Part shown: in pieces, positions 316 to 28,707 of the stretch
Position numbering within the stretch: position 1 is the first letter of the stretch
How the letters are laid out: each line of letters opens with the position of its first letter
Assembly: GCA_003552565.1 (NCBI GenBank)
Contig: PUNB01000262.1
Span: 1-28,707, forward strand
Direction of reading: 5' to 3'
DNA from: Lentisphaerota bacterium
GTDB lineage: Bacteria; Verrucomicrobiota; Lentisphaeria; Oligosphaerales; PUNB01
Length of the DNA: 28,707 nt
Translations under genes and position numbers: made by a program
Notes under the pieces: model-generated
What the model was told of the DNA's origin: nothing
The model's database searches: none
The model's input: the letters and a program-made list of their open reading frames with translations, nothing else

Positions 316-381
316 AGTTGATTAGCCTGAGACCGTCCGGAAAGGGGTATTGTGTGTTTTGAGTTCAACTTTCTCCCGAAT

Positions 382-416
382 CCGCCTGAGGCGGATTAGA
401 GACAAGGTTTTTTCAG
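382..416 (+). terminator. palindrome 'AATCCGCCTGAGGCGGATT' + GACAAGG + T6, terminator-like element downstream of the PCD gene
   Basis: Perfect 8-bp stem with a 3-nt loop, followed 11 nt later by TTTTTT. The same element recurs at 14779-14815. Confidence 0.45.
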
Positions 417-420
417 CACA

Positions 421-655
421 AATTCGGCACACTACCCCTTTCCGGATGCCCTCTAGCTCGAGGTTATGCGAAAAGGGTTTTGTGGAGCTCACAAGCTCGA
501 AAGTGACTGTGCGTTCCACGGCCAATTGGATTAAGGCGAATGATTATGACGAAAGATTAGGGAAAAACGGGTGCGTCCCTTAATCTTTTGCCCTAATCTT
601 TCGCCTTAATCTCGTTTCCGACCCTTTTTCGCGGAGGATCTAGCTCCGCCGGGAA
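421..655 (+). repeat. structured ~230-bp interspersed repeat, copy L (motif A - hairpin core - motif A)
   Basis: About 135 bp of core is roughly 90% identical to the reverse complement of 2640-2790. The core itself is an imperfect ~90-nt hairpin ('GATTAAGGCGAA..GATTAGGG' / 'CCCTTAATC..TTCGCCTTAATC'). It is flanked by motif A at 435-458 and 622-645. Confidence 0.8.
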
Positions 656-3896: not shown

Positions 3897-4082
3897 GGGC
3901 GTTTTTCTAGAGGTTATGCGGAAAGGTTGATGTTCCGATTTGTGTTGGTTTAACCATTGTCTAGAACCTTGTCTCGCACCTTGTCGGGAACAAAAAACTG
4001 AATCGAAAAAAGTGCGCGACAAAGTGTTGTAACACCCGATTCTCTCTCGGGGTGCCCGGCGCGTCGCGCCACGAACCGGCGC

Positions 4083-4616
4083 TTATGTGAGGCTTCGCGT
4101 TGTTGGGCACGTTAAACTGCCGGAGTTCCAGCCGCTGGAGACTTGCTCGGCGGAAGGCTGTGTGTCGTTATCACGCCGCGGCTCCGGCGGTTCCAGCTTC
4201 ATTATTCCCGAGGCGGAAAAAAGAATCATACCGATAATAATCAGGGACAAGACGGCGTATCCCCACACGCCATTGCGAGCGAAGGCGTAGATAGTGGGTA
4301 TTAGTCCCCAGATGACAACCGTGGTTCCCAAAGTCAAACCGAAAATTATCAAGCCGTCCCCGGTAAAGAGTTCATTCCACCAAAGGGAATGTATAGAGGG
4401 GATAGAGCCATGCAGGATTTTCCAAATTTCCGGACCTGAGACTCCCTCGAAGATCATGGCGAAAGTGAAGTAGGGATTCAAGGCTGTATCCTCAGGACGG
4501 AGGACGGATATAATGATTCCGATCAAACAGATAACGCAAGTGGATAAGGTTATCCAATATACCACTTGTCCATAAATTCTGTTGTAAAGAGGCGCCACTG
4601 GTCTGTCTTCAGTCAT
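4083..4616 (-). CDS. DUF1634-family small membrane protein, partner of TauE/SafE
   Basis: 177 aa with 4 hydrophobic helices. It overlaps the upstream TauE/SafE gene by 8 nt, a known conserved pairing. The C-terminal about 20 codons run into a repeat/hairpin, so the true stop is uncertain. Confidence 0.55.
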   Translation of the reverse strand: MTEDRPVAPLYNRIYGQVVYWITLSTCVICLIGIIISVLRPEDTALNPYFTFAMIFEGVSGPEIWKILHGSIPSIHSLWWNELFTGDGLIIFGLTLGTTVVIWGLIPTIYAFARNGVWGYAVLSLIIIGMILFSASGIMKLEPPEPRRDNDTQPSAEQVSSGWNSGSLTCPTTRSLT

Positions 4617-5700: not shown

Positions 5701-5819
5701 TTTTTGTCCTTTATGTCATTCAAAAGTGCGAAAATATTTGTATATAAAATTGGTTTGCTGAAAATTAAGCAGTTTTATCTCCACTTTATTGCAATACAGA
5801 ATAATGCTCATGCTAACAA

Positions 5820-5897
<78 letters not shown>

Positions 5898-5961
5898 TAT
5901 GCGCCCGCGGAAGGTGCCTCGCAAAGAGCGGTTACTTTAACTGATAAATCGGCAAAGTCAA

Positions 5962-8063: not shown

Positions 8064-8176
8064 GCGTATGAACTTTAAGCCTCCGGAGATACCTTTTCGC
8101 ATACCCTCTAGCTATGATTACCCTAGTGCCAGAATTGTGGCGGTTAATATAGCGCGGGAATTAACTTTTTAAACTA

Positions 8177-10765: not shown

Positions 10766-10984
10766 ATGAAATTGCGAATACCTAAAGACGGTGATCAGCT
10801 GCTGGAAATGGAATATCTGGAGATGCGGGCTCATCTTCTGGAAGTGGCCGCCGCCTTTGATCGTATTGAGCGGGCCGGAGGAACGTCTGACAGCCGCTTG
10901 GATCTGCTGCGCCGGCTTGGAAGGATCGCCGTGGAAGAGAAAAGTGATCGCGCCCAGCGGGTTCTGAATGAACTGTCCGAATGA
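10766..10984 (+). CDS. hypothetical small protein (72 aa, helical, charged)
   Basis: ORF 'MKLRIPKDGDQLLEMEYLEMRAHLLEVAAAFDRIERAGG...'. GGGGTG lies 6-11 nt upstream of the ATG (a GTG at 10760 is also possible). No family recognised. Confidence 0.4.
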   Translation: MKLRIPKDGDQLLEMEYLEMRAHLLEVAAAFDRIERAGGTSDSRLDLLRRLGRIAVEEKSDRAQRVLNELSE

Positions 10985-11319
10985 GTTTCGAGTCGGTATG
11001 GAATACAGGTTTCGGGTTTCAGAAAGGCTGTTTTGTACTTTCCTAGTCTCGCACCTTGTCTCGCACTTAGTCTGAAAAATGAGGAATCGACAGAAAACCA
11101 GACAAGGTGCGAGACAAAGTTTTATTTTTTTGTGCGTGTAGAGACTGCAAACACCTTTTCGCAGAGGGTCTAGCTATTAATAAGGTGTCAACTTTTAGTC
11201 AGGACTTGACACACCTGGACACTGAAACCTGAAACCACGAAGCCTCACATAAGTGAGTTTTATAATGAGATATTCGGCCGGCATTCGGACTTGGGAAACT
11301 AAAAAAAAGAAGTTATTTT

Positions 11320-12153: not shown

Positions 12154-12471
12154 ACACCTGACCGGGGCAGACGTGATTCGGCCGGGGCGTAATGTGTCAG
12201 TCATAGGAGCACGAATTTCCCACCTTTCACTGAAGCATTACTCCGAAACTGTCCATGCGCTTGCAATTACACGGATGCCAATTACTATTTCTGTTCCGGG
12301 GTATCTGGCGCCTTGCGCCGGGGGCGGGGCTTATCTGAAGCACAGTTTTGAATATTGAATGGTGAATATTGAACTTGGAATTTTTACCTGAAACCTGACA
12401 CCAGAAACCAAGCTGTTACCCATTCGTTTTGAGCAAGAGTCGCGTTTCATTCCAAACCAGCGGTGTAAAAA

Positions 12472-12678
12472 ATGATCAGCGAGAAGTTGTTATCTATCCT
12501 CGGGTGTCCGGCTTGTGAGCAGCGCCCCGCTCTTACACCGGTAAAAAAAGACGAGGGAGAATATCTGGCCTGCGAACAGTGCGGCCTGCTTTACCCGATT
12601 CGGGATGACATTCCGATTATGCTGGTTGATCAGGCGCTCCGTCCTTCCAAGGCGGCGGAGAGTTCCAAGCCTGAATAA
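12472..12678 (+). CDS. Trm112-like (DUF343/YcaR) small zinc-finger protein
   Basis: 'LLSILGCPACEQ...LACEQCGLLYPIRDDIPIMLVDQA' is the canonical Trm112p/YcaR motif. Confidence 0.75.
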   Translation: MISEKLLSILGCPACEQRPALTPVKKDEGEYLACEQCGLLYPIRDDIPIMLVDQALRPSKAAESSKPE

Positions 12679-12917
12679 TTCACGAGCCAAGATTACCGTC
12701 TGGCCACTTGCAGACTAAATAGAAAAAAAATAACATAACATGACAAAAATAAAACCACTGCGCGGACGGATTGTTCCGTCCGAATAAAATTCAAACCTTG
12801 TCCAGAACCTGAATCTATTTGGACTTTGGTTCAGGAGAAGGTTAGTTCCGTCATCCTTTGGAACGACTGTGTAATTGTTTCTAAACCGAAAACCCAAAAA
12901 CGCCAAGGAGCATAAAT

Positions 12918-13274
12918 ATGAGCACTGGTTATCATGAAGCAGGTTTAAGTCAGAAAACTCAGAATATCCATCGGGCCATCGCCAGTTTGCAGGAAGAACT
13001 GGAAGCGGTGGACTGGTATAATCAGCGCGCTGATGTGACTGAGGACGCGGAATTGAAAGCGGTTCTTGAACACAACCGCAATGAAGAGATTGAGCACGCC
13101 GGTATGCTGCTTGAATATCTCCGTCGCAATATGAGCGAGTTTGACGAGCAATTGTCGACCTACCTGTTTTCCACTCTGCCGATCACCCAGATCGAAGAGG
13201 CTGAAGAGGGCGGGGAAAATGACGCTCCCGGCGACGTCTCCAGCTCTGGCTTGGGCATTGGGAAAATGGATTAG
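12918..13274 (+). CDS. encapsulated ferritin-like protein (EncFtn/Flp) cargo with C-terminal encapsulin targeting peptide
   Basis: 'EELEAVDWYNQRADVTEDAELKAVLEHNRNEEIEHAGMLLEYLRR' is the EncFtn di-iron motif region. The Gly-rich linker ends in 'SSGLGIGKMD', resembling the family-1 cargo-loading peptide (GSLGIGxL). Confidence 0.8.
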   Translation: MSTGYHEAGLSQKTQNIHRAIASLQEELEAVDWYNQRADVTEDAELKAVLEHNRNEEIEHAGMLLEYLRRNMSEFDEQLSTYLFSTLPITQIEEAEEGGENDAPGDVSSSGLGIGKMD

Positions 13275-13346
13275 CTCAGTTCTTGATGCCTTGGTAGTGA
13301 ACTGATTTATTGCTTTGTATTATCAAAAAACATAAGGAAATGAAAG

Positions 13347-14153
13347 ATGGATATTTTAAAAAGATCACTGGCTCCAATCACTGACAGCGCCTGGAATGAG
13401 ATTGATCAGGAAGCGGCGCGCGTTTTGAGAGGCAATCTGGCTTTTCGCGGCCTGGTGGACTTCGTCGGACCCGAGGGCTGGGAGAAGGCGGCGGTCAATC
13501 TGGGCACCATGAAAGAAGGCGGCAAGCAGCTGGTGAAAGGAGTTAACTGGGGATTACGTCAGGTTCAGCCTTTGACCGAAATCAGAGTGCCCTTTTCTCT
13601 TGATATATGGGAGTTGGACAACTTGGAACGCGGCGCCCAGGCACCCGATCTGGACGCGGTCACGCAGGCGGCTCAACAAGGAGCGGTCTTTGAGGAAACG
13701 GCTGTTCTCAACGGTTTTTCCGAGGCTCAGATCACCGGCATCGGTCAGGCGGCCGGCAAACCGATCGGCATGTCCAAGAACCCAGCCGATTGCCTCGCCG
13801 CTTTTGAAGAAGGCATCGTGGCCTTGCAGAAGCAGGGAATCAACGGTCCATACCAGCTGGTTCTGGGAACGGAAGCCTATCAAATGATAATGGCCGGTGA
13901 TGATAAAGGTTATCCTCTGCACAAGCGCGTACAGGAATTGACCGGAACCGACATCAAATGGAGTCCGGCAGTGATGCAGGCGGGGATTATTTTAAGCTGT
14001 CGCGGCGGTGATTATGTCTTCACCTGCGGCCAGGATTTTTCCATCGGCTATCATTCACATTCAACCAAGGCGGTTAATCTGTTTTTAACCGAGTCTTTTA
14101 CTTTCCAGGTTCTGGAACCCGCGGCGGCGGTCAGTATATCCTGGAAAAAGTGA
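13347..14153 (+). CDS. family-1 encapsulin nanocompartment shell protein (linocin M18-like, HK97 fold)
   Basis: Collinear similarity to the T. maritima encapsulin: 'MDILKRSLAPITDSAWNEID', 'WGLRQVQPLTEIRVPFSLDIWELDNLERG', 'GPYQLVLGTEAYQ', 'GYPLHKRVQELTG', 'GQDFSIGYHSHSTKAVNLFLTESFTFQVLEP'. Confidence 0.9.
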   Translation: MDILKRSLAPITDSAWNEIDQEAARVLRGNLAFRGLVDFVGPEGWEKAAVNLGTMKEGGKQLVKGVNWGLRQVQPLTEIRVPFSLDIWELDNLERGAQAPDLDAVTQAAQQGAVFEETAVLNGFSEAQITGIGQAAGKPIGMSKNPADCLAAFEEGIVALQKQGINGPYQLVLGTEAYQMIMAGDDKGYPLHKRVQELTGTDIKWSPAVMQAGIILSCRGGDYVFTCGQDFSIGYHSHSTKAVNLFLTESFTFQVLEPAAAVSISWKK

Positions 14154-14215
14154 CGGTTTGGCCTGAAATAAATTGCGAGTCAAATTTGCCGCATGGCCGA
14201 ATTTGCATGCATTAA

Positions 14216-14725: not shown

Positions 14726-14976
14726 GAATATATATCCTTGTCTCGAACCTTGTCTCGAACCTTGTCCCGAACCTTGTCCCTAATCCGCCTCAGGCGGATT
14801 AGGGACAAGGTTTTTTATGCCGCACCAGTCTCTCGCTCGGAGTATCAGGCTCCTCGAGCCAGCGGTCAGGCTTATGTGAAACTCAGCCTTGTCTACCTCA
14901 GGCGGATCTGGTTTTCTTTCGATTCCTCATTTTTCGGACTAAGTGCGAGACAAGGTGCGAGACAAGGTGAGCACAA
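14726..14976. repeat. composite structured element: 4x tandem 12-mer 'CCTTGTCTCGAA', a 12-bp-stem palindrome with T6, and inverted 12-mer copies at the far end
   Basis: 14736-14783 holds the tandem 12-mers. 14779-14815 is 'CCCTAATCCGCC-TCAG-GGCGGATTAGGG ACAAGGTTTTTT'. 14946-14970 is 'GTGCGAGACAAGGTGCGAGACAAGG', the inverse of the 12-mer. A 'GGCTTATGTGAAACTCAGCC' box lies at 14859-14878. Confidence 0.7.
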
Positions 14977-15007
14977 AATCAGGTCTCAACCCCTTTCCGG
15001 ACGGGCT

Positions 15008-15940
15008 CTATCTAAGGCTGTTTGCAGTGTTTTTCGAGGCGCGCGCCGCACCATGCCAGGTCCACACATTGCCGCTGAATTCTTTTTCAGCTTTTAACGC
15101 CGCGGCGGCTGCTTGTTCTTCAGAGTTGAACACGGCGAAAACCGTCGGGCCGCTGCCGGAAACATGGCTTGCCATGGAATCTTGATTCCGGAGGAAGTCA
15201 AAAAACATTTGTAATAGAGGAATTTTCTGCAAAAGCGGTTCGTTAAAACGAGTTCGAGTATTTCGGGCAATTTTTTCTAGATCCCCCTCCCACATTGCTT
15301 TTAATAAAGGTATGGAGGAGATTTCCATTAGGTCATCGAAACTTCCGCGGATTCGCTGATAAGCCCAGCCGGCGGAAACGGGGAGGCCGCCGGGGTTTAA
15401 CAATAGAATCGGAATAGAGCAGTTAAGTGTAACCGGATCCAGTTTATCGCCTATGCCGCGGGCTAAGGAGGGAAGGGGATTCAGGAAGAAGGGCGCGTCA
15501 GCTCCGAGTTGGCGGGCCATTTGATGGCGTCGGCTGTCACCAAGCGTGATTCCGGTTATCTCCTCCAGAGCATTCAGCACGGCGGCGCCGTCTGAACTGC
15601 CGCCGCCCAGGCCTGCGGCCACGGGTATTTTTTTATCGATGTGTATATGCCAGGCCGGGGGGATTTTTGCTTCTTCCGCAAAAGCAATTGCGGCCTGGTA
15701 AACCAAATTGGAGCTGTCAACTGGAACCTGCGGGTGGCTACAGGTGATTTCAGGCTCCCTGCCGTGGATAGGGGTTACAGTTATAGTATCACATAGATCC
15801 GGCAGCGGCAGAAAAACAGACTCCAACTCATGCATCCCGTCGGCTCTTTTGCCGCGAATGGCCAGGAACAGATTTATCTTCGCCGGTGTCTTAACGATTA
15901 CACTACGGATGGCAGCTGCTGAATGTTCTGTTTTTAACAT
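15008..15940 (-). CDS. ispE: 4-diphosphocytidyl-2-C-methyl-D-erythritol kinase
   Basis: 'PAKINLFLAIRGKRADGMHELESVF' and 'KIPVAAGLGGGSSDGAAVL' are GHMP-kinase/IspE motifs. The stop overlaps motif A (14990-15014). Confidence 0.85.
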   Translation of the reverse strand: MLKTEHSAAAIRSVIVKTPAKINLFLAIRGKRADGMHELESVFLPLPDLCDTITVTPIHGREPEITCSHPQVPVDSSNLVYQAAIAFAEEAKIPPAWHIHIDKKIPVAAGLGGGSSDGAAVLNALEEITGITLGDSRRHQMARQLGADAPFFLNPLPSLARGIGDKLDPVTLNCSIPILLLNPGGLPVSAGWAYQRIRGSFDDLMEISSIPLLKAMWEGDLEKIARNTRTRFNEPLLQKIPLLQMFFDFLRNQDSMASHVSGSGPTVFAVFNSEEQAAAAALKAEKEFSGNVWTWHGAARASKNTANSLR

Positions 15941-16724: not shown

Positions 16725-16874
16725 CGCTTGTGTGAGACTTTGTGGTTTCAGGTTTCAGTGTTCAGATGTCAGACAACAGAAACCATGCGAGACAAACTGT
16801 AGTAACGCATCCCATGGGACGCTTGTGAGTTTTTTTTAATTAATTTGCCTGTAACATGAAAGGATAAATGCTTA

Positions 16875-17519: not shown

Positions 17520-17532
17520 GAAAATATTGAGT

Positions 17533-17600
17533 TACCGCGCGGACGTATTATTACGTCCGGTATATTGGGCTACCGCGCGGACGTATTATTACGTCCGGTA
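17533..17600. repeat. two tandem 30-bp palindromic units 'TACCGCGCGGACGTATTATTACGTCCGGTA' separated by 8 bp
   Basis: Unit 1 at 17533-17562 and unit 2 at 17571-17600 are identical. Each contains the perfect palindrome CGGACGTA-ATTAT-TACGTCCG. They lie between the purO stop and the hisD start. Confidence 0.85.
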
Positions 17601-19838: not shown

Positions 19839-19904
19839 TGGAAGATTAAGGCTTTTTCTCAAAACGAATGAGTTGCTAATAGTTTTTCTTAGATTTTATG
19901 GGCA

Positions 19905-20190
19905 CCAGCTTGGTTTTAGATCTCAGGTTTCAGGTGTCAGGACTTGACAAGGCGGATCGTGCAGTGACCGATAAAGATAGTGGTTTAAGCGTAACCAAGT
20001 AAGTGTGAGACGAAGGGTGGGATGAAGAGGAAGCCGAAGTGTTTAGAAGAGAGGCCTGAAGCCCATGACACTTAACCCCCCACTTAATCGTACACTTGAG
20101 CCCACTCTTAGTTGGTTACGCTTAAGCAACCTGCTTGGGTACGAAATTCTGAAACCTGAAACCCGAAACCTGAACTCTGTCACGAACAAT
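19905..20190. repeat. structured intergenic element bounded by inverted motif-C heptamer runs, with an internal imperfect 25-bp inverted repeat
   Basis: Motif C '...CAGCTTGGTTTTAGATCTCAGGTTTCAGGTGTCAGGACTTGACAAGG' at 19905-19951. Its inverted counterpart 'CTGAAACCTGAAACCCGAAACCTGAAC' at 20148-20174. IR arms 19985-20009 vs 20104-20130 (TTAAGCGTAACCAA...). Confidence 0.65.
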
Positions 20191-20250
20191 GCATTATTTC
20201 TGAATGTGAATTGAAACAAGCTGTCCACTCAATTTGAAAAGGAATCTATT

Positions 20251-21600
20251 ATGACAACATTATTCGGTACTGATGGTATCCGGGGGCAGACCAATGCTTA
20301 CCCGGTGATTCCGGAAATCGCCCTCAGTTTGGGCAAGGCCTTGGCGCATGTTATGGAAGCAAAGGGGCATGGAACCTGTAAAGCGCTAATCGGCAAGGAT
20401 ACACGCCTTTCCGGGTACATGCTGGAAACAGCTTTGACCAGCGGCCTGGTGTCCATGGGTATGGATGTTTTTCTCGCCGGACCGATTCCCACTCCGGCGG
20501 TGGCGCACTTAACTAAAACCATGAACTGCGATGCGGGCATCATGCTGACGGCTTCACACAATCCCTTCGATGACAACGGCATAAAAATTTTCAATTCGGA
20601 AGGTTTTAAGCTTTCTGATGAACTGGAAAAGAAGATTGAGGAACATGTCCTCAGTGGAGAACTGGTGAGCGATCATATTCGCTCCGATAACCTGGGGAAA
20701 ACCTACCGTGTTGAGGATGCTCGCGGACGCTATATCGAATACGCAAAGAGCACTTCCCGCGGCCTGGAGCTGAACGGCATGAAGGTGGTGCTGGACTGCG
20801 CTAACGGCGCCGCTTATCAGATAGCTCCTTGGATATTCAAAGAACTCGGAGCGGAGGTGATAAAAATTTTCGCCTCTCCGGACGGTTATAACATCAATAA
20901 CAGTTGCGGAGCTTTGCATCCGGAAACTGTCGGCAAGGTGGTGGTCGAGAACGGAGCCGATTTGGGAATTGCCTTTGACGGCGACGCGGACCGTGTGGTC
21001 TTCTGTGACGCCGCCGGCAACGAAGTGGACGGCGACCGGGTTCTGGCCATGTGCGCGCTGGATCTCAAGTCCAGGGATGAATTGAATCACAACACTCTCG
21101 TGGTGACTTCCATGAGTAATCTCGGACTGGTGCGGAAAATGGAAGAAAACGGCATAAACGTTAAGACGACCGATGTCGGAGATCGTTTTGTAATTGAAGC
21201 CATGCGCGCCGGTAATTTCAACCTGGGCGGAGAGAAGTCCGGCCATTTGATTTTCGCTGATTACGCCACCACCGGTGACGGAATTGTCGGTGCCTTGCAA
21301 GTGCTTAGGCTGATGCGCGAAACCGGTAAGTCCCTGAGGGAGCTGGCGGACTGTTTCGATGAATACCCGCAGAAACTTCACAGTATGCAGGTGGGCGTTA
21401 AAAAACCGGTGGAGGAACAGCCCACGATGGTGGCCGAGATCGGCGCCTGCAAAGAAGCTCTCGGCGAAGAGGGCAGGGTGATTGTGCGCTACTCCGGCAC
21501 CGAAAATAAAATACGCTTTCTGGTGGAAGCGCCGTCGATTGAAACCGTGGACAGCTGGATTGAACGGCTGTGCGCCGCGGCTAAAAAGGATTTAGGTTGA
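20251..21600 (+). CDS. glmM: phosphoglucosamine mutase
   Basis: 'LFGTDGIRG', 'TASHNPFDDNGIKIF', 'GDGDADR' and 'GGEKSGH' are the alpha-D-phosphohexomutase/GlmM motifs. Confidence 0.9.
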   Translation: MTTLFGTDGIRGQTNAYPVIPEIALSLGKALAHVMEAKGHGTCKALIGKDTRLSGYMLETALTSGLVSMGMDVFLAGPIPTPAVAHLTKTMNCDAGIMLTASHNPFDDNGIKIFNSEGFKLSDELEKKIEEHVLSGELVSDHIRSDNLGKTYRVEDARGRYIEYAKSTSRGLELNGMKVVLDCANGAAYQIAPWIFKELGAEVIKIFASPDGYNINNSCGALHPETVGKVVVENGADLGIAFDGDADRVVFCDAAGNEVDGDRVLAMCALDLKSRDELNHNTLVVTSMSNLGLVRKMEENGINVKTTDVGDRFVIEAMRAGNFNLGGEKSGHLIFADYATTGDGIVGALQVLRLMRETGKSLRELADCFDEYPQKLHSMQVGVKKPVEEQPTMVAEIGACKEALGEEGRVIVRYSGTENKIRFLVEAPSIETVDSWIERLCAAAKKDLG

Positions 21601-22517: not shown

Positions 22518-22870
22518 GGTTTCGTATTGTGGCTATAAAAACCTGGTGTCTCATACAAGCCCAGCCGCCGGCGCAAAGCGCCTGATACCCCGGATGGAAA
22601 CAGCGGCTAACGAAGAACCGTGACCCTATCCGTGTGTATCCGTGTTAATCCGTGGTGAAAAAAGGCAGAAAATAAAACCACGGATGGACACAGATTAACA
22701 CTGATATAAAATGGTTCGTTTCTAGTGGGAAAAACGGAGAACAAAACGACCGTGTTTCACATAAGCCTGATCGCCGGCGCGATGCACGCCGAATACCCTG
22801 AGGGTGAGACTGTTGCGGCATAAAAAACCTTGTCTCGAACCTTGTCCAGTTTTTTTTGACTTTTTGTGCC

Positions 22871-26675: not shown

Positions 26676-27554
26676 TTACTCCACATCAAACTCTATAAAA
26701 TGAATCGGCATCTCAAAGCTCACCGAATCATCGAAACGAACCAAACGTCGTTCCCTAACGGCCTCCTCTTCTGAATCAACTTCCCGATCTCCGCGCCGAT
26801 CATCTCGGGAACGGCTTCGGTCGCTTCGCCGATCACTGTCCCGCTGGATTTCCAGTTCCTCTCCGCGCCATTGAAAATAAGGAACATTGAAATAAAAATC
26901 CTGTTCAGCGTGAAGCTGATTGATCAAACTACGTATATTCCCCAACGAGCCCCGCAGTTCCAGATTAATTCGCATAACTCGATAACCGTCTTTATGAATT
27001 TCCCTTATCCCCGCTGGTCGATGCAAGGATCTCACCTCTTCCACACCGCTTCCCGCAACAAGCTCAGCCACCCTTTCCACCACCCGCAGCTGGCGCATCA
27101 AAGCAGGCGCCTCACGTGACGCCTCCGGCAAACCTGGTGCCTGGATAATCTCTTGAAAAGAAAACCCGCGGGCATCGTCATGAACTTCCACACCCGCCTG
27201 TTCAAATTCGGATCTAAGACTTCTAGCCACCGAGTCCAGCTGATTCTTAGCTTCGACCGCACTAACGGATTCGACTTCCAAAACAGAACGCTCCGCCAGA
27301 GCCTGTTTTAATTTTGACAGTTCATTTTCGAGCTGTTCAAGGTTTTCTCTGGCCTGTCGCAAATTCTCGTCAGTAACCCCAGGGCGTCGCTCGGCGACCC
27401 GGGAAAAATAGCTCTGATGGTCGGAATACTCCTCAGCCAGCTCTTCAACCTCGCTGCCAATCCGGCCGGAGACTGTCCACAAAGCCACAGCCAGTATCAC
27501 ACAAACCAGCAAAAATACAACGAAGCCTATATTTCTCTTTAATATATTCAGCAT
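26676..27554 (-). CDS. PilO-like type IV pilus assembly membrane protein (TM + coiled coil + PilO-like fold), Arg/Asp-rich insert
   Basis: TM 'IGFVVFLLVCVILAVALW', then coiled coil 'ENLRQARENLEQLENELSKLKQALAER'. 'MRINLELRGSLGNIRSLINQLHAEQDFYFNV' resembles the PilO C-domain. Low-complexity 'RDSDRRSDRSRSRDDRRGDRE'. Confidence 0.5.
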   Translation of the reverse strand: MLNILKRNIGFVVFLLVCVILAVALWTVSGRIGSEVEELAEEYSDHQSYFSRVAERRPGVTDENLRQARENLEQLENELSKLKQALAERSVLEVESVSAVEAKNQLDSVARSLRSEFEQAGVEVHDDARGFSFQEIIQAPGLPEASREAPALMRQLRVVERVAELVAGSGVEEVRSLHRPAGIREIHKDGYRVMRINLELRGSLGNIRSLINQLHAEQDFYFNVPYFQWRGEELEIQRDSDRRSDRSRSRDDRRGDREVDSEEEAVRERRLVRFDDSVSFEMPIHFIEFDVE

Positions 27555-27779
27555 AGTCCTAGCTCACTCTAAGTTTTTTATGGCTTTTTCTTAAAACAAA
27601 TGTTTATTAATAAAAGATTCTTTTCTGAAATTTCATCGGTAACAGCTTGGTTTCAGGTTTCTGGTGTCAGGGTATTAGTTAAATCCCAAATCTAAAATCA
27701 CAAATCTCATTGATGGAATATGGTTCGGGACAAAGTTGAACCCAGAGACACGCGAAACACCTTTTCGGATACCCTCAGG

Positions 27780-28707
27780 CTAGTATTCCAAGTCAATCGG
27801 CTCTTCGAGTCTTGCCCGGATAGTGAACGTTCTCAGATTAAACACCTGATCCGACACTTCGTATTCATCAAAATCGACCCGATCCTCAACGAAAACAGGC
27901 AATCTTCTCAACCTTGACAAAAGTACCTGTTCCGGACCGCGGCCGTTATCCGGAACCTCTTCAGGCGCCTCAATATCCTCGAGCTCATCGGCCGCCTCTT
28001 CGAGTTCTTCCCGCGCTAACTCTTCAAGCTCTTCATCCCCAACGTCTTGTCCGTCAATTCTAACTCCCGGCGGAAGTGAAAGACTGTGGCCGCGAACTGC
28101 TATGCCGGTGATTCTGCCTCTCGGGCCGCTTTCTTCCAGTTCAATCTCATCAGGATCTCTTTCTTCATCCTCGCGCCGCGGTTCATCGTCACGATCACGC
28201 CTCCTGCTGAAAGGACTGGCGGGAGCGTCGCGCTCGGGCCGGCGTTCCTCTTCTTCCTCTCTCAAATCCTCAAAAACCGGCCTGAATTCAGTGAACCACA
28301 ACCTTCCGGGTATTTCCGCTTCCACGGAATTAACCACCCGCACCCAATCTTCGCGTCTTCTCAGCAGGCGGTTCAATCGCTGGTACTGATCCTCGACATT
28401 GCTGATCTCGCTCTCCACCCCGCTCAATTCGCTCTCTTTCTCTTCCAGCTCTTGGCGCTGTTCCCGGAATTGTTCCACCACCGGCTCATAAACCTGAGCC
28501 ATGTACATATTGCTGAACAAAGAGAAGGTCAACAGCAAAAGTACGCACAAAGCCGCCGCTCCCAGCCATGTCTTCTTCTGCTCAAAAGCCACTAGTCGAC
28601 GTATGCGCCGCGGCAGGAGATTAACCTCAACCGGACAGGCCCCTCGATAACGCAGCGCCAAACCAACCGCCTGACTGAACCCATGGGCCTCGTTTTCCAA
28701 TCTTTCA
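27780..28707 (-). CDS. PilN-like pilus assembly protein, possibly fused to an upstream PilM-like domain. The 5' end is outside the window.
   Basis: The ORF is open to the window end. 'VNLLPRRIRRLVAFEQKKTWLGAAALCVLLLLTF' is a PilN N-terminus (INLLP motif + TM), then a coiled coil. The preceding 'GFSQAVGLALRY' resembles a PilM C-terminus. Long acidic/Arg tail. Confidence 0.55.
   Translation of the reverse strand, partial: ERLENEAHGFSQAVGLALRYRGACPVEVNLLPRRIRRLVAFEQKKTWLGAAALCVLLLLTFSLFSNMYMAQVYEPVVEQFREQRQELEEKESELSGVESEISNVEDQYQRLNRLLRRREDWVRVVNSVEAEIPGRLWFTEFRPVFEDLREEEEERRPERDAPASPFSRRRDRDDEPRREDEERDPDEIELEESGPRGRITGIAVRGHSLSLPPGVRIDGQDVGDEELEELAREELEEAADELEDIEAPEEVPDNGRGPEQVLLSRLRRLPVFVEDRVDFDEYEVSDQVFNLRTFTIRARLEEPIDLEY

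Follow-up and report, generated by a model that had tools for sequence, protein, structure and literature searches.

Correia elements of Neisseria and the BIME/REP of enterobacteria are small, abundant, intergenic and partly palindromic repeats, which build mosaics and can affect the expression of neighboring genes. REPs are imperfect palindromes of 20-40 bp with a GTAG or CGTC head and a RAYT partner, and they produce no target duplication. The STRR of cyanobacteria are intergenic direct repeats of heptamers. The nearest described free-standing intergenic heptamers are the TAACTGA repeats of Beggiatoaceae, Cyanobacteria, and Bacteroidetes (PMC4679880). ISL3 elements, exemplified by ISArsp7 (PMC6305408) and a Microcystis MITE (PMC11448079), have ends starting GGCTCTTCG and 8-bp direct repeats. 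Coxiella burnetii's 23S rRNA intervening sequence (IVS) is a 428-nt selfish element with an S23p ORF and a 28-bp terminal inverted-repeat stem that is cut by RNase III; tandem GACAGAT heptamers, two or three depending on the strain, lie beside the ORF start, and a transposon origin has been proposed but is yet to be shown (PMC4990558). The heptamer runs of the Lentisphaerota sequence analyzed here are, in our assessment, likely to be the slippage-prone tandem-repeat segments that a small selfish DNA element carries in its two inverted arms.

The window, i.e., the whole stretch of 28,707 nt, has a G+C content of 52% and carries housekeeping genes, including ftsY, mreC, an encapsulin gene with EncFtn, dtd, purO-hisD-fumarase-glmM, and a secretin operon. 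The regions between these genes are long and crowded with several unrelated families of short repeats (12-mers, 13-mers, GC hairpins); GC-rich hairpin modules are present, for example, at 22556-22600 and 12305-12340. The heptamer runs described in the earlier note are real: with up to two mismatches, GTTTCAGGTTTCWGG gave 11 matches versus 0.20 expected, a number that none of 100 shuffles reached, and the three-unit pattern GTKTCNGGTKTCNGGTKTCNG matched three times versus 0.00 expected. Merging of the pattern matches resulted in seven runs (Table 1), whose coordinates agree with those first given to within a few bases. At least seven intergenic regions had been counted; all seven runs are indeed intergenic, but they occupy five regions. 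The regions 10976-11298 and 19839-20250 hold one inverted pair each, with the runs about 200 bp apart. Rfam, applied to the window at the gathering threshold and at E <= 1, gave no match on any repeat; it found only a tRNA-Val with a sub-threshold antisense match over it, and no rRNA.

Table 1. Heptamer runs (merged pattern matches), element copies and boxes in the window
Feature	Position	Strand	Description
Run 1	11006-11024	+	Right-type array of E2
Run 2	11215-11237	-	Left-type array of E2
Run 3	12386-12409	-	In E4
Run 4	16745-16772	+	In E5
Run 5	19914-19941	+	In E1
Run 6	20148-20176	-	In E1
Run 7	27651-27671	+	In E3
E1	19850-20246	+	Complete, 397 bp; from left to right: left arm and G-sense array, palindromic core, C-sense array and right arm
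E1 left arm	19850-19913	+	GGCTTTTTCTCAAAACGAATGAG...CAGCTTGG
E1 left array	19914-19941	+	G-sense, 4 units, two degenerate: TTTTAGA TCTCAGG TTTCAGG TGTCAGG
E1 box	19936-19949	+	GTCAGGACTTGACA
E1 core	19980-20130		63-nt inverted repeat arms 19980-20042 / 20068-20130, 71% complementary
E1 right array	20148-20176	+	C-sense: CTGAAAC CTGAAAC CCGAAAC CTGAAC
E1 right arm	20177-20246	+	Terminus ...TTTGAAAAGGAATC; AAGGA, Shine-Dalgarno-like; glmM ATG at 20251
E2	11006-11262	-	Degenerate, reverse orientation; outer module CTCACTTATGTGAGGCTTCG at 11238-11262
E2 box	11198-11211		GTCAGGACTTGACA
E3	27582-27671	+	Diverged left arm 27582-27650 and 3-unit array 27651-27671 (TTTCAGG TTTCTGG TGTCAGG)
E4	12386-12441	-	Short, internally deleted left arm GACTCTTGCTCAAAACGAATGGGTAACAGCTTGG and 3-unit array
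E5	16725-16772	+	Alternative outer module CGCTTGTGTGAGACTTTGTG and array GTTTCAG GTTTCAG TGTTCAG ATGTCAG
Second box, copy 1	4080-4091		GGCTTATGTGAG, at most one mismatch
Second box, copy 2	14869-14880		GGCTTATGTGAG, at most one mismatch
Second box, copy 3	22756-22767	-	GGCTTATGTGAG, at most one mismatch
Second box, variant	11238-11249		CACTTATGTGAG, abuts a run
Second box, variant	16725-16736		CGCTTGTGTGAG, abuts a run

The modules are not confined to the window, since more than 30 copies with constant order and orientation of arms and arrays were found in at least five other Lentisphaeria MAGs. The modular mosaic of dispersed small intergenic repeats of the MITE/Correia kind that had been proposed is thus supported as a family. 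The Lentisphaeria MAGs sharing these repeats originate from hypersaline soda-lake sediment (survey PMC6146748). A scan of 185,579 species-representative genomes with CAGCTTGGTTTCWGGTKTCWGG revealed 27 loci, with 23 in two Lentisphaeria MAGs, one in a Victivallales MAG, and one in a MAG labelled Hydrogenedentota. Three matches in Streptococcus represented an unrelated hairpin and were rejected. Most of the scan matches were located within 200 bp of contig ends and pointed outward, which is the signature of a multicopy repeat that breaks assemblies; the family breaks short-read assemblies, as contigs of two MAGs and of the Logan assembly for the window's organism end in these repeats, and this bears on MAG quality in this clade. 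The left terminus gave one match in JGI metagenomes (L149) and none in IMG/VR, and blastn of an arm with its array against plasmids yielded only chance-level matches to small Salmonella plasmids. A literature search returned no description of the family and nothing relevant for the heptamer sequences or for MITEs of Lentisphaerae.

Among the copies, the arms share 76-97% identity and the flanks are unrelated; in aligned copies there is a sharp left boundary at GGCTCTTTCTCAAAACGAATGGG, with unrelated sequence upstream. A canonical element starts with the terminus GGCTCTTTCTCA and a left arm of about 65 bp ending in CAGCTTGG, followed by (TTTCAGG/TGTCAGG)n. This left array is followed by AGAGAATAATG, which contains a Shine-Dalgarno sequence, and by a short ORF. 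The element is completed by (CCTGAAA/CCCGAAA)n and a right arm of about 85 bp ending in ...CCCACTCAAAGTGAGAAAGAACC, with the terminus TGAGAAAGAACC. Element sizes range from 246 to 500 bp, canonical copies being about 330-500 bp long. The ends form terminal inverted repeats, since GGCTCTTTCTCAAAACGAATGGGT and the reverse complement of the right end, GGTTCTTTCTCACTTTGAGTGGGT, agree at 18 of 24 positions by eye, and the left-arm HMM has a weak cross-match to the right arm on the opposite strand (E 2.4).

The window contains one complete cargo-less copy, E1, and at least four fragments, MITE-like relics that together cover all seven runs. Three runs adjoin the left arm of about 65 bp and one the right arm of about 85 bp, while the runs at 11006, 11215, and 16745 are without canonical arms. 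E3, the locus of the earlier note, has its left terminus 27 bp away from where the minus-strand gene 26676-27554 starts; its left arm was matched by nhmmer with E 1.5e-6 (27580-27650) and is 75-79% identical to about 20 copies, and no right arm is present. The arm of E4, which lies upstream of a Trm112-like ORF (ATG 12468), was matched with E 5.3e-6 (12412-12442, minus strand) and is 92-97% identical over 37 nt to more than 20 loci. E2 comprises a left-type array, a box, a core of the palindromic 12-mer CCTTGTCTCGCA, and a right-type array with an attached stub resembling the start of the right arm; its inverted arrays are 199 nt apart and 93% complementary. E5 is located upstream of the IMP cyclohydrolase gene. 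Instead of canonical arms, the runs of E2 and E5 have a common alternative outer module, TGTGAGRCTTYGTGG.

E1 occupies the gap that separates the stop of fumarase (19838) from the start of glmM (20251). Its arms were matched by the HMMs at 19847-19913 (left, E 1.7e-18) and 20163-20246 (right, E 2.1e-22) and share 84-93% identity with copies from other genomes. In BLAST comparisons, the segment 19838-19942 resembled about 25 loci with 81-91% identity, and the segment 20145-20250 resembled six places with 84-93%; beyond these two stretches and the arms of E3 and E4, the remainder of the window had no BLAST similarity to the related loci. The core module TTGGTTACGCTTAAGC is present in one more locus (L128), and no four-helix-bundle ORF was found in the E1 core. 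The predicted RNA fold of E1 had an energy of -115.9 kcal/mol versus -99.1 for shuffles (z -2.85).

Relatives have kept the gene order purO-hisD-fumarase-glmM-hexapeptide transferase, but where the window has 412 bp between fumarase and glmM, the spacer of L152/L153 measures 24 bp and that of L156-158 measures 17 bp. The closest relatives of the window GlmM are proteins of MAGs with 72-77% identity, and the identity to a Lentisphaerae MAG is 65%. Copies therefore vary in presence and absence, as this site is filled in the window and empty in relatives, whose GlmM identity is only 72-77%. The 63 kb of syntenic sequence from the relatives contained no arm and no run of two or more units; the MAG supplying L152 has a copy of the family on another contig (L161). 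No target duplication is recognizable at E1 (AAGATTAA versus TATTATGA), which has 84-91% identity to the other copies and is probably an old insertion. The sole Shine-Dalgarno-like sequence for glmM, AAGGA, lies in the right terminus of the element, GAAAAGGAATC, 4 nt before the ATG. E1 could thus donate a ribosome-binding site to glmM, and a similar arrangement is found at L159, where the 8-bp duplication includes the downstream start codon.

In other genomes, four independent insertions are flanked by 8-bp target duplications, three of them perfect and one matching at 7/8 positions: TATTTTTA (L146 and its orthologue L162), GTTTTTTT (L163), CTATGAAA (L159:132-377), and TCAATCTT/TCAATATT (L134). 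The L163 copy was inserted within the T-tract of a terminator-like hairpin, and at L160 no target duplication was recognizable. The 8 nt adjoining the termini are 84% A+T (39 distinct flanks) versus 42% for the loci, and the gene orientation at left termini is mixed, with 10 gene starts versus 12 gene ends according to crude ORF calls. The element thus inserts into AT-rich intergenic sites, duplicating 8 bp. It has the features of MITEs: terminal inverted repeats, a target duplication of fixed length, small multicopy units lacking a transposase gene, and empty sites.

A transposase with matching ends was not found in 284 kb of related loci, in the window, or in the ORF search, in which the copies yielded only products of 60-82 aa. 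The search for an autonomous copy, with inverted GGYTCTT ends 0.9-3.5 kb apart, returned only the L160 composite, which contains a PDDEXK_3 gene and no transposase. A DDE transposase acting in trans would move the copies; given the GGCTCTT start of the ends and the 8-bp duplication, the ISL3 family is its most likely origin. The link to ISL3 is drawn from seven common terminal bases and the length of the duplication. The end of L151, GGTTCTTTCGCG, and that of ISArsp7, GGCTCTTCGCG, both start with GGCTCTT, after which the element ends continue with TCTCA and the ISL3 ends with CG..., so that the match is limited to the first seven bases. Like the ISL3-related MITEs, the elements are non-autonomous, multicopy and intergenic, with 8-bp direct target repeats; unlike them, they have heptamer arrays inside and a cargo gene that does not encode a transposase, and a transposase with these ends was not found in the sequences searched.

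The short ORF had no significant match in Pfam and was absent from the window by tblastn. It is kept in the divergent, GC-richer copy L151, with dN/dS of 0.07 and 5/7/25 differences at codon positions 1/2/3; the pattern of substitutions is that of a cargo protein evidently under purifying selection. A profile search against 1.84 billion representative proteins retrieved 155 clusters, nearly all of 40-120 aa. Longer members of this family were assigned above threshold to PF05635 (23S rRNA intervening-sequence protein) and TIGR02436 (four-helix-bundle protein). Residues 91-155 of one protein, P0173, are 43-45% identical to the ORFs of the MAGs (E about 1e-13). The MAG ORF consists of the first six residues of the full gene, the last helix of the domain, and the conserved C-terminal extension, and since it covers three separate parts of the full gene, it is an internally deleted gene. 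The AlphaFold model of the short ORF contained only a helical hairpin (pLDDT 71).

Full-length genes of two further lineages are also bracketed by inverted heptamer arrays; the association was checked in four lineages at the DNA level. In L164, such a gene lies between aldolase and ldh, enclosed by (GGTCAGA)n ... (TCTGACC)n and devoid of arms, and in L166 the arrangement is (GGTTCAG)n-AGGAGG-ATG ... (CCTGAAC)n. As the L164 cassette has arrays without arms, the two could represent layers that are separable and differ in mechanism. C-sense arrays contain TGA in all three frames within three units and would end the cargo ORF. The tails xET, xDT, xEP, xEH, and xEL occur in 59 of 148 family members versus 7 of 120 controls; such tails would be expected of an ORF that reads into a C-sense array and stops at its TGA.

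The predicted RNA fold of L146 had an energy of -103.3 kcal/mol versus -80.4 for shuffles (z -4.3), with arrays and termini paired, and that of L164 had z -1.6. Predicted pairing of the termini and arrays would close the element. If transcribed, the inverted arms and arrays would form a long duplex resembling the terminal stem of rRNA IVS, which RNase III could cut. Other likenesses to the rRNA IVS of Coxiella burnetii and Leptospira (PMC4990558) are a selfish insert of about 430 nt, an inverted-repeat stem enclosing an ORF, the PF05635/TIGR02436 assignment of this often decaying ORF, and a variable number of heptamers by the ORF start (2 versus 3 in Coxiella, 2 versus 4 in L162/L146). On the contrary, the copies described here all lie between protein-coding genes rather than in 23S rRNA helix 25 or 45, and target-site duplications as well as insertion polymorphism occur among them. 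Their arrays are present on both sides, inverted and up to 17 units long, and the unit is GGTTTCA/GGTGTCA rather than GACAGAT. The window copies have lost the ORF, while canonical copies keep an internally deleted ORF of the PF05635 type.

The arrays are variable. The 28 left arrays comprise 2-17 units of only TTTCAGG (93) and TGTCAGG (46), and the seven right arrays comprise 1-5 units, only complements of TTTCGGG (13) and TTTCAGG (9). L146 and L162, an orthologous insertion in two independently assembled MAGs, are identical over about 500 nt except for two differences, a 14-nt (two-unit) indel in the left array (4 versus 2 units) and one substitution in the right array. Such changes fit replication slippage within each arm, by which the arrays would grow and shrink. 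Unit variants are arm-specific, TGTCAGG being restricted to left and TTTCGGG to right arrays; as these variants are not complementary, covariation lends no support to an RNA stem kept by selection.

It is rather unlikely that the arrays are functional leader or binding repeats similar to TAACTGA, bound by a protein or the ribosome and controlling translation of the next gene, with the arms being incidental. In every canonical copy, the cargo ORF has a Shine-Dalgarno sequence that overlaps the last G-sense unit (TCAGGAGAGAATAATG), and likewise in L166; in L140 and several IMG/VR contigs, start codons follow C-sense arrays at a distance of 3-35 nt. However, only three of the seven window runs point to a gene start, at a distance of 58-95 nt and each via an arm, and two runs abut gene 3' ends. 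ORF starts lie downstream in the C-sense direction in 94 versus 67 of 134 cases among the matches listed, which is a crude and weakly asymmetric count. The number of units, 2-17, reveals no evident constraint, and the arrays travel together with terminal inverted repeats and target duplications. TAACTGA repeats were described just upstream of start codons (PMC4679880), while the arrays found here have no consistent site just upstream of host starts. Both TAACTGA repeats (PMC4679880) and cyanobacterial STRR resemble these arrays in being tandem heptamers, with two to tens of copies, strictly intergenic, and scattered over the phylogeny in a patchy way that suggests horizontal spread. The C-sense unit has the CTGA core in common with TAACTGA (CTGAAAC versus CTGATAA). 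Nevertheless, the unit here is CTGAAAC or CTGACAC and matches TAACTGA at 5/7 positions in the best register, and the arrays occur as inverted pairs inside an element that has terminal inverted repeats and makes target duplications.

The two conserved boxes said to be joined to the runs bear on the possibility that the elements serve as mobile promoter cassettes whose TTGACA, as a -35 hexamer, would drive neighboring genes. The first box, GTCAGGACTTGACA, is present in two exact copies, a few bases from the positions initially given, and contains TTGACA within a near-palindrome, TGTCA-N5-TGACA. It reads as a head-to-head junction of a G-sense unit and a C-sense heptamer unit, and TTGACA is apparently a by-product of the C-sense unit CCTGACA; this unit and CCTGAAA are one or two mismatches off TTGACA. 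The proposal that it represents a perfect sigma-70 -35 element was not supported, because neither the promoter scan nor inspection revealed a -10 hexamer 16-18 bp from either TTGACA. The scan gave 19 sites for the window versus 13.1 +/- 3.1 expected and zero sigma-70-like sites in one canonical copy. Although five of six right termini face gene starts, the orientation of the box relative to the neighboring run is opposite in its two copies, and the box was not found in any related locus, so a promoter function of this kind appears very unlikely. The second box, GGCTTATGTGAG, is likewise real, but none of its three copies adjoins a run, and only the variants CACTTATGTGAG and CGCTTGTGTGAG do; being mostly apart from the runs, it is therefore mostly a separate repeat module.

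The likeness to BIME/REP or Correia elements of different sequence, suggested in the earlier note, stands for a mosaic of the Correia/MITE type and not for REP/BIME. The elements described here are small, abundant, intergenic and partly palindromic mosaics, as the Correia and BIME repeats are; they differ in having no sequence similarity to them, an 8-bp rather than a TA dinucleotide duplication, variable-number heptamer arrays inside, and a structure other than that of RAYT-type palindromes. The intergenic mosaic of short palindromic modules, together with the other GC-rich hairpin modules of the window, could recall REP/BIME-type repeats handled by RAYT (TnpA-REP) instead of a DDE transposase, but terminal inverted repeats of about 12-40 bp starting with GG, 8-bp target duplications, the absence of a GTAG or CGTC head tetranucleotide at the ends (GGCTC.../...GAACC), and the size of 250-500 bp, far above that of REPs, make this hardly credible. 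An equally slim chance is left for the runs being ordinary microsatellites that arose independently at each site, which is contradicted because the flanks are conserved: four of seven runs lie within arms that have more than 30 homologous copies elsewhere, unit types are arm-specific, and the 63 kb of syntenic sequence lacks runs of two or more units, even though similar arrays occur in small Salmonella plasmids at chance level and, by the loose three-unit pattern, in at least 120 IMG/VR contigs, many of them unrelated and, among the matches listed, with no arms and no four-helix-bundle ORF.

The best-supported account is that an intervening-sequence-type four-helix-bundle cassette gave rise to a mobile, MITE-like derivative, with the window copies being cargo-less relics. 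Recombination and nested insertion at the repeats would create the mosaic. A more speculative reading, which taken as a whole we consider improbable, is that the elements are free-living, actively transposing rRNA IVS, and that an S23p/four-helix-bundle cassette has the inverted arrays as its functional ends. In this scenario, a stem cleavable by RNase III would let the cassette sit in operons or rRNA while the host transcript is spared, and the small protein would use its conserved C-terminal extension to act on the arrays, in mobility or in maintenance. The operon examples are fumarase-glmM in the window and aldolase-ldh in L164. If this reading is true, the 30-year-old proposal that IVS are transposon remnants becomes directly testable.

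The MITE-like family brings together three subjects that had been described apart, namely tandem heptamers between genes, transposition of the MITE type with target duplications, and S23p genes in rRNA IVS, and offers material for testing the transposon origin of intervening sequences. By separating glmM from fumarase and putatively supplying the ribosome-binding site of glmM, E1 provides a concrete case of a mobile element rewiring the leader of an essential gene. Decayed copies of small mobile cassettes make up much of the intergenic DNA, which is unusually long in this genome.

The intergenic regions of the window contain several repeat families besides the heptamer arrays. A second family is built from the 12-mer CCTTGTCTCGAA/CCTTGTCTCGCA, the copies of which are both direct and inverted. 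At 14770-14812, this family forms a hairpin with a 20-bp stem followed by a T-run, which was the top terminator-like site of the scan. A 13-mer tandem family, consisting of GATTAAGGCGAAA and its complement, forms a long palindrome centred on GGGTGCGTCCC. Between purO and hisD, a 38-bp unit with the hairpin CGCGCGGACGTATTATTACGTCCG occurs as two tandem copies (17524-17599) that are 95% identical. The recurrent module ACACCTTTTCGCAGAGGGTCTAGCTA/CCCCTTTCCGGACGGTCTAGC frequently adjoins a minus-strand gene at its 3' end, and a piece related to it lies before the left terminus of an element copy at L125, a locus outside the window. The coordinates of the repeats and of the gene-bearing element copies are listed below.

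Coordinates of repeat families in the window and of gene-bearing element copies
Feature	Location	Remark
12-mer CCTTGTCTCGAA/CCTTGTCTCGCA family	window 3945-3991, 11032-11078, 11100-11120, 14726-14816, 14936-14968, 22818-22852	
Near copy of the 12-mer-family repeat	window 367-413	
13-mer palindrome (GATTAAGGCGAAA/GGGTGCGTCCC)	window 529-625 and 2636-2732	two copies, opposite orientations
Third, diverged copy of the CGCGCGGACGTATTATTACGTCCG hairpin unit	window 12747-12784	upstream of EncFtn gene
Module ACACCTTTTCGCAGAGGGTCTAGCTA/CCCCTTTCCGGACGGTCTAGC	window 8078-8117, 11140-11179, 27746-27785; also 415-458, 2790-2816, 14970-15013	
PDDEXK_3 composite entry	L159:4240-4556 and L160:300-704	
Element copies carrying the ORF	L146:4030-4359, L161:3700-4037, L163:1360-1790, L151	other genomes, outside the window

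The sequencing run SRR490150 contains the organism of the window, represented in its Logan assembly by contigs L001 and L150. Short-read contigs of this run end at window positions 12367, 14765, 20165, and ~22593, all four within repeat modules. Within its first 30 nt, L150 departs from the window at three positions, each time toward the consensus of the element family, which suggests either strain variation or cross-talk with a different copy.

Among the genes, a ferritin-cargo encapsulin operon was found at 12918-14153, in which an EncFtn-like gene precedes the gene for a Linocin_M18 encapsulin shell; a small Trm112-like ORF lies upstream. A match to the Rfam antisense RNA HPnc0260 (5739-5868, plus strand), scoring slightly under the threshold (58.5 versus 59 bits), shares part of its span with tRNA-Val, which is encoded on the opposite, minus strand (5830-5906), and therefore probably reflects mere complementarity to this tRNA.

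Other modules are nested in or adjoin copies of the MITE-like element. The 22-mer CCTGAATAATTCACGAGCCAAG, which overlaps the Trm112-like ORF's stop codon in the window (12670-12691), is the start of another dispersed element nested in the cores of five MAG copies (L124, L129, L139, L141, and L148) and free-standing in L136 and L142. The short dispersed module GGCCGAATTCGCATGAATTAATCAGG, present in the window as GGCCGAATTTGCATGCATTAA at 14195-14215, recurs adjoining or within element copies in MAG loci (L129, L141, and L163 flanks). The core of one element copy harbors a PDDEXK_3 (PF13366) gene and tandem repeats of the ACGAAATAC type; this copy is a 1.5-kb composite with the usual element termini at its ends.

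Arrays of at least three GTKTCNG units were found in at least 120 viral-labelled IMG/VR contigs with G+C contents of 29%–71%. Among the IMG/VR matches listed, arrays with an inverted partner within 400 bp followed the order G-sense then C-sense in 11 cases and the reverse in none, and neither the element arms nor the four-helix-bundle ORF was present in these contigs.

The ORF in the canonical element encodes 60–82 amino acids and is under purifying selection (dN/dS 0.07). Its C-terminal extension is conserved (LP..RRW.V.E...YG...P.GWP) and defines an unannotated family of 155 clusters at 50% identity. The ORF is an internally deleted four-helix-bundle gene of PF05635/TIGR02436.
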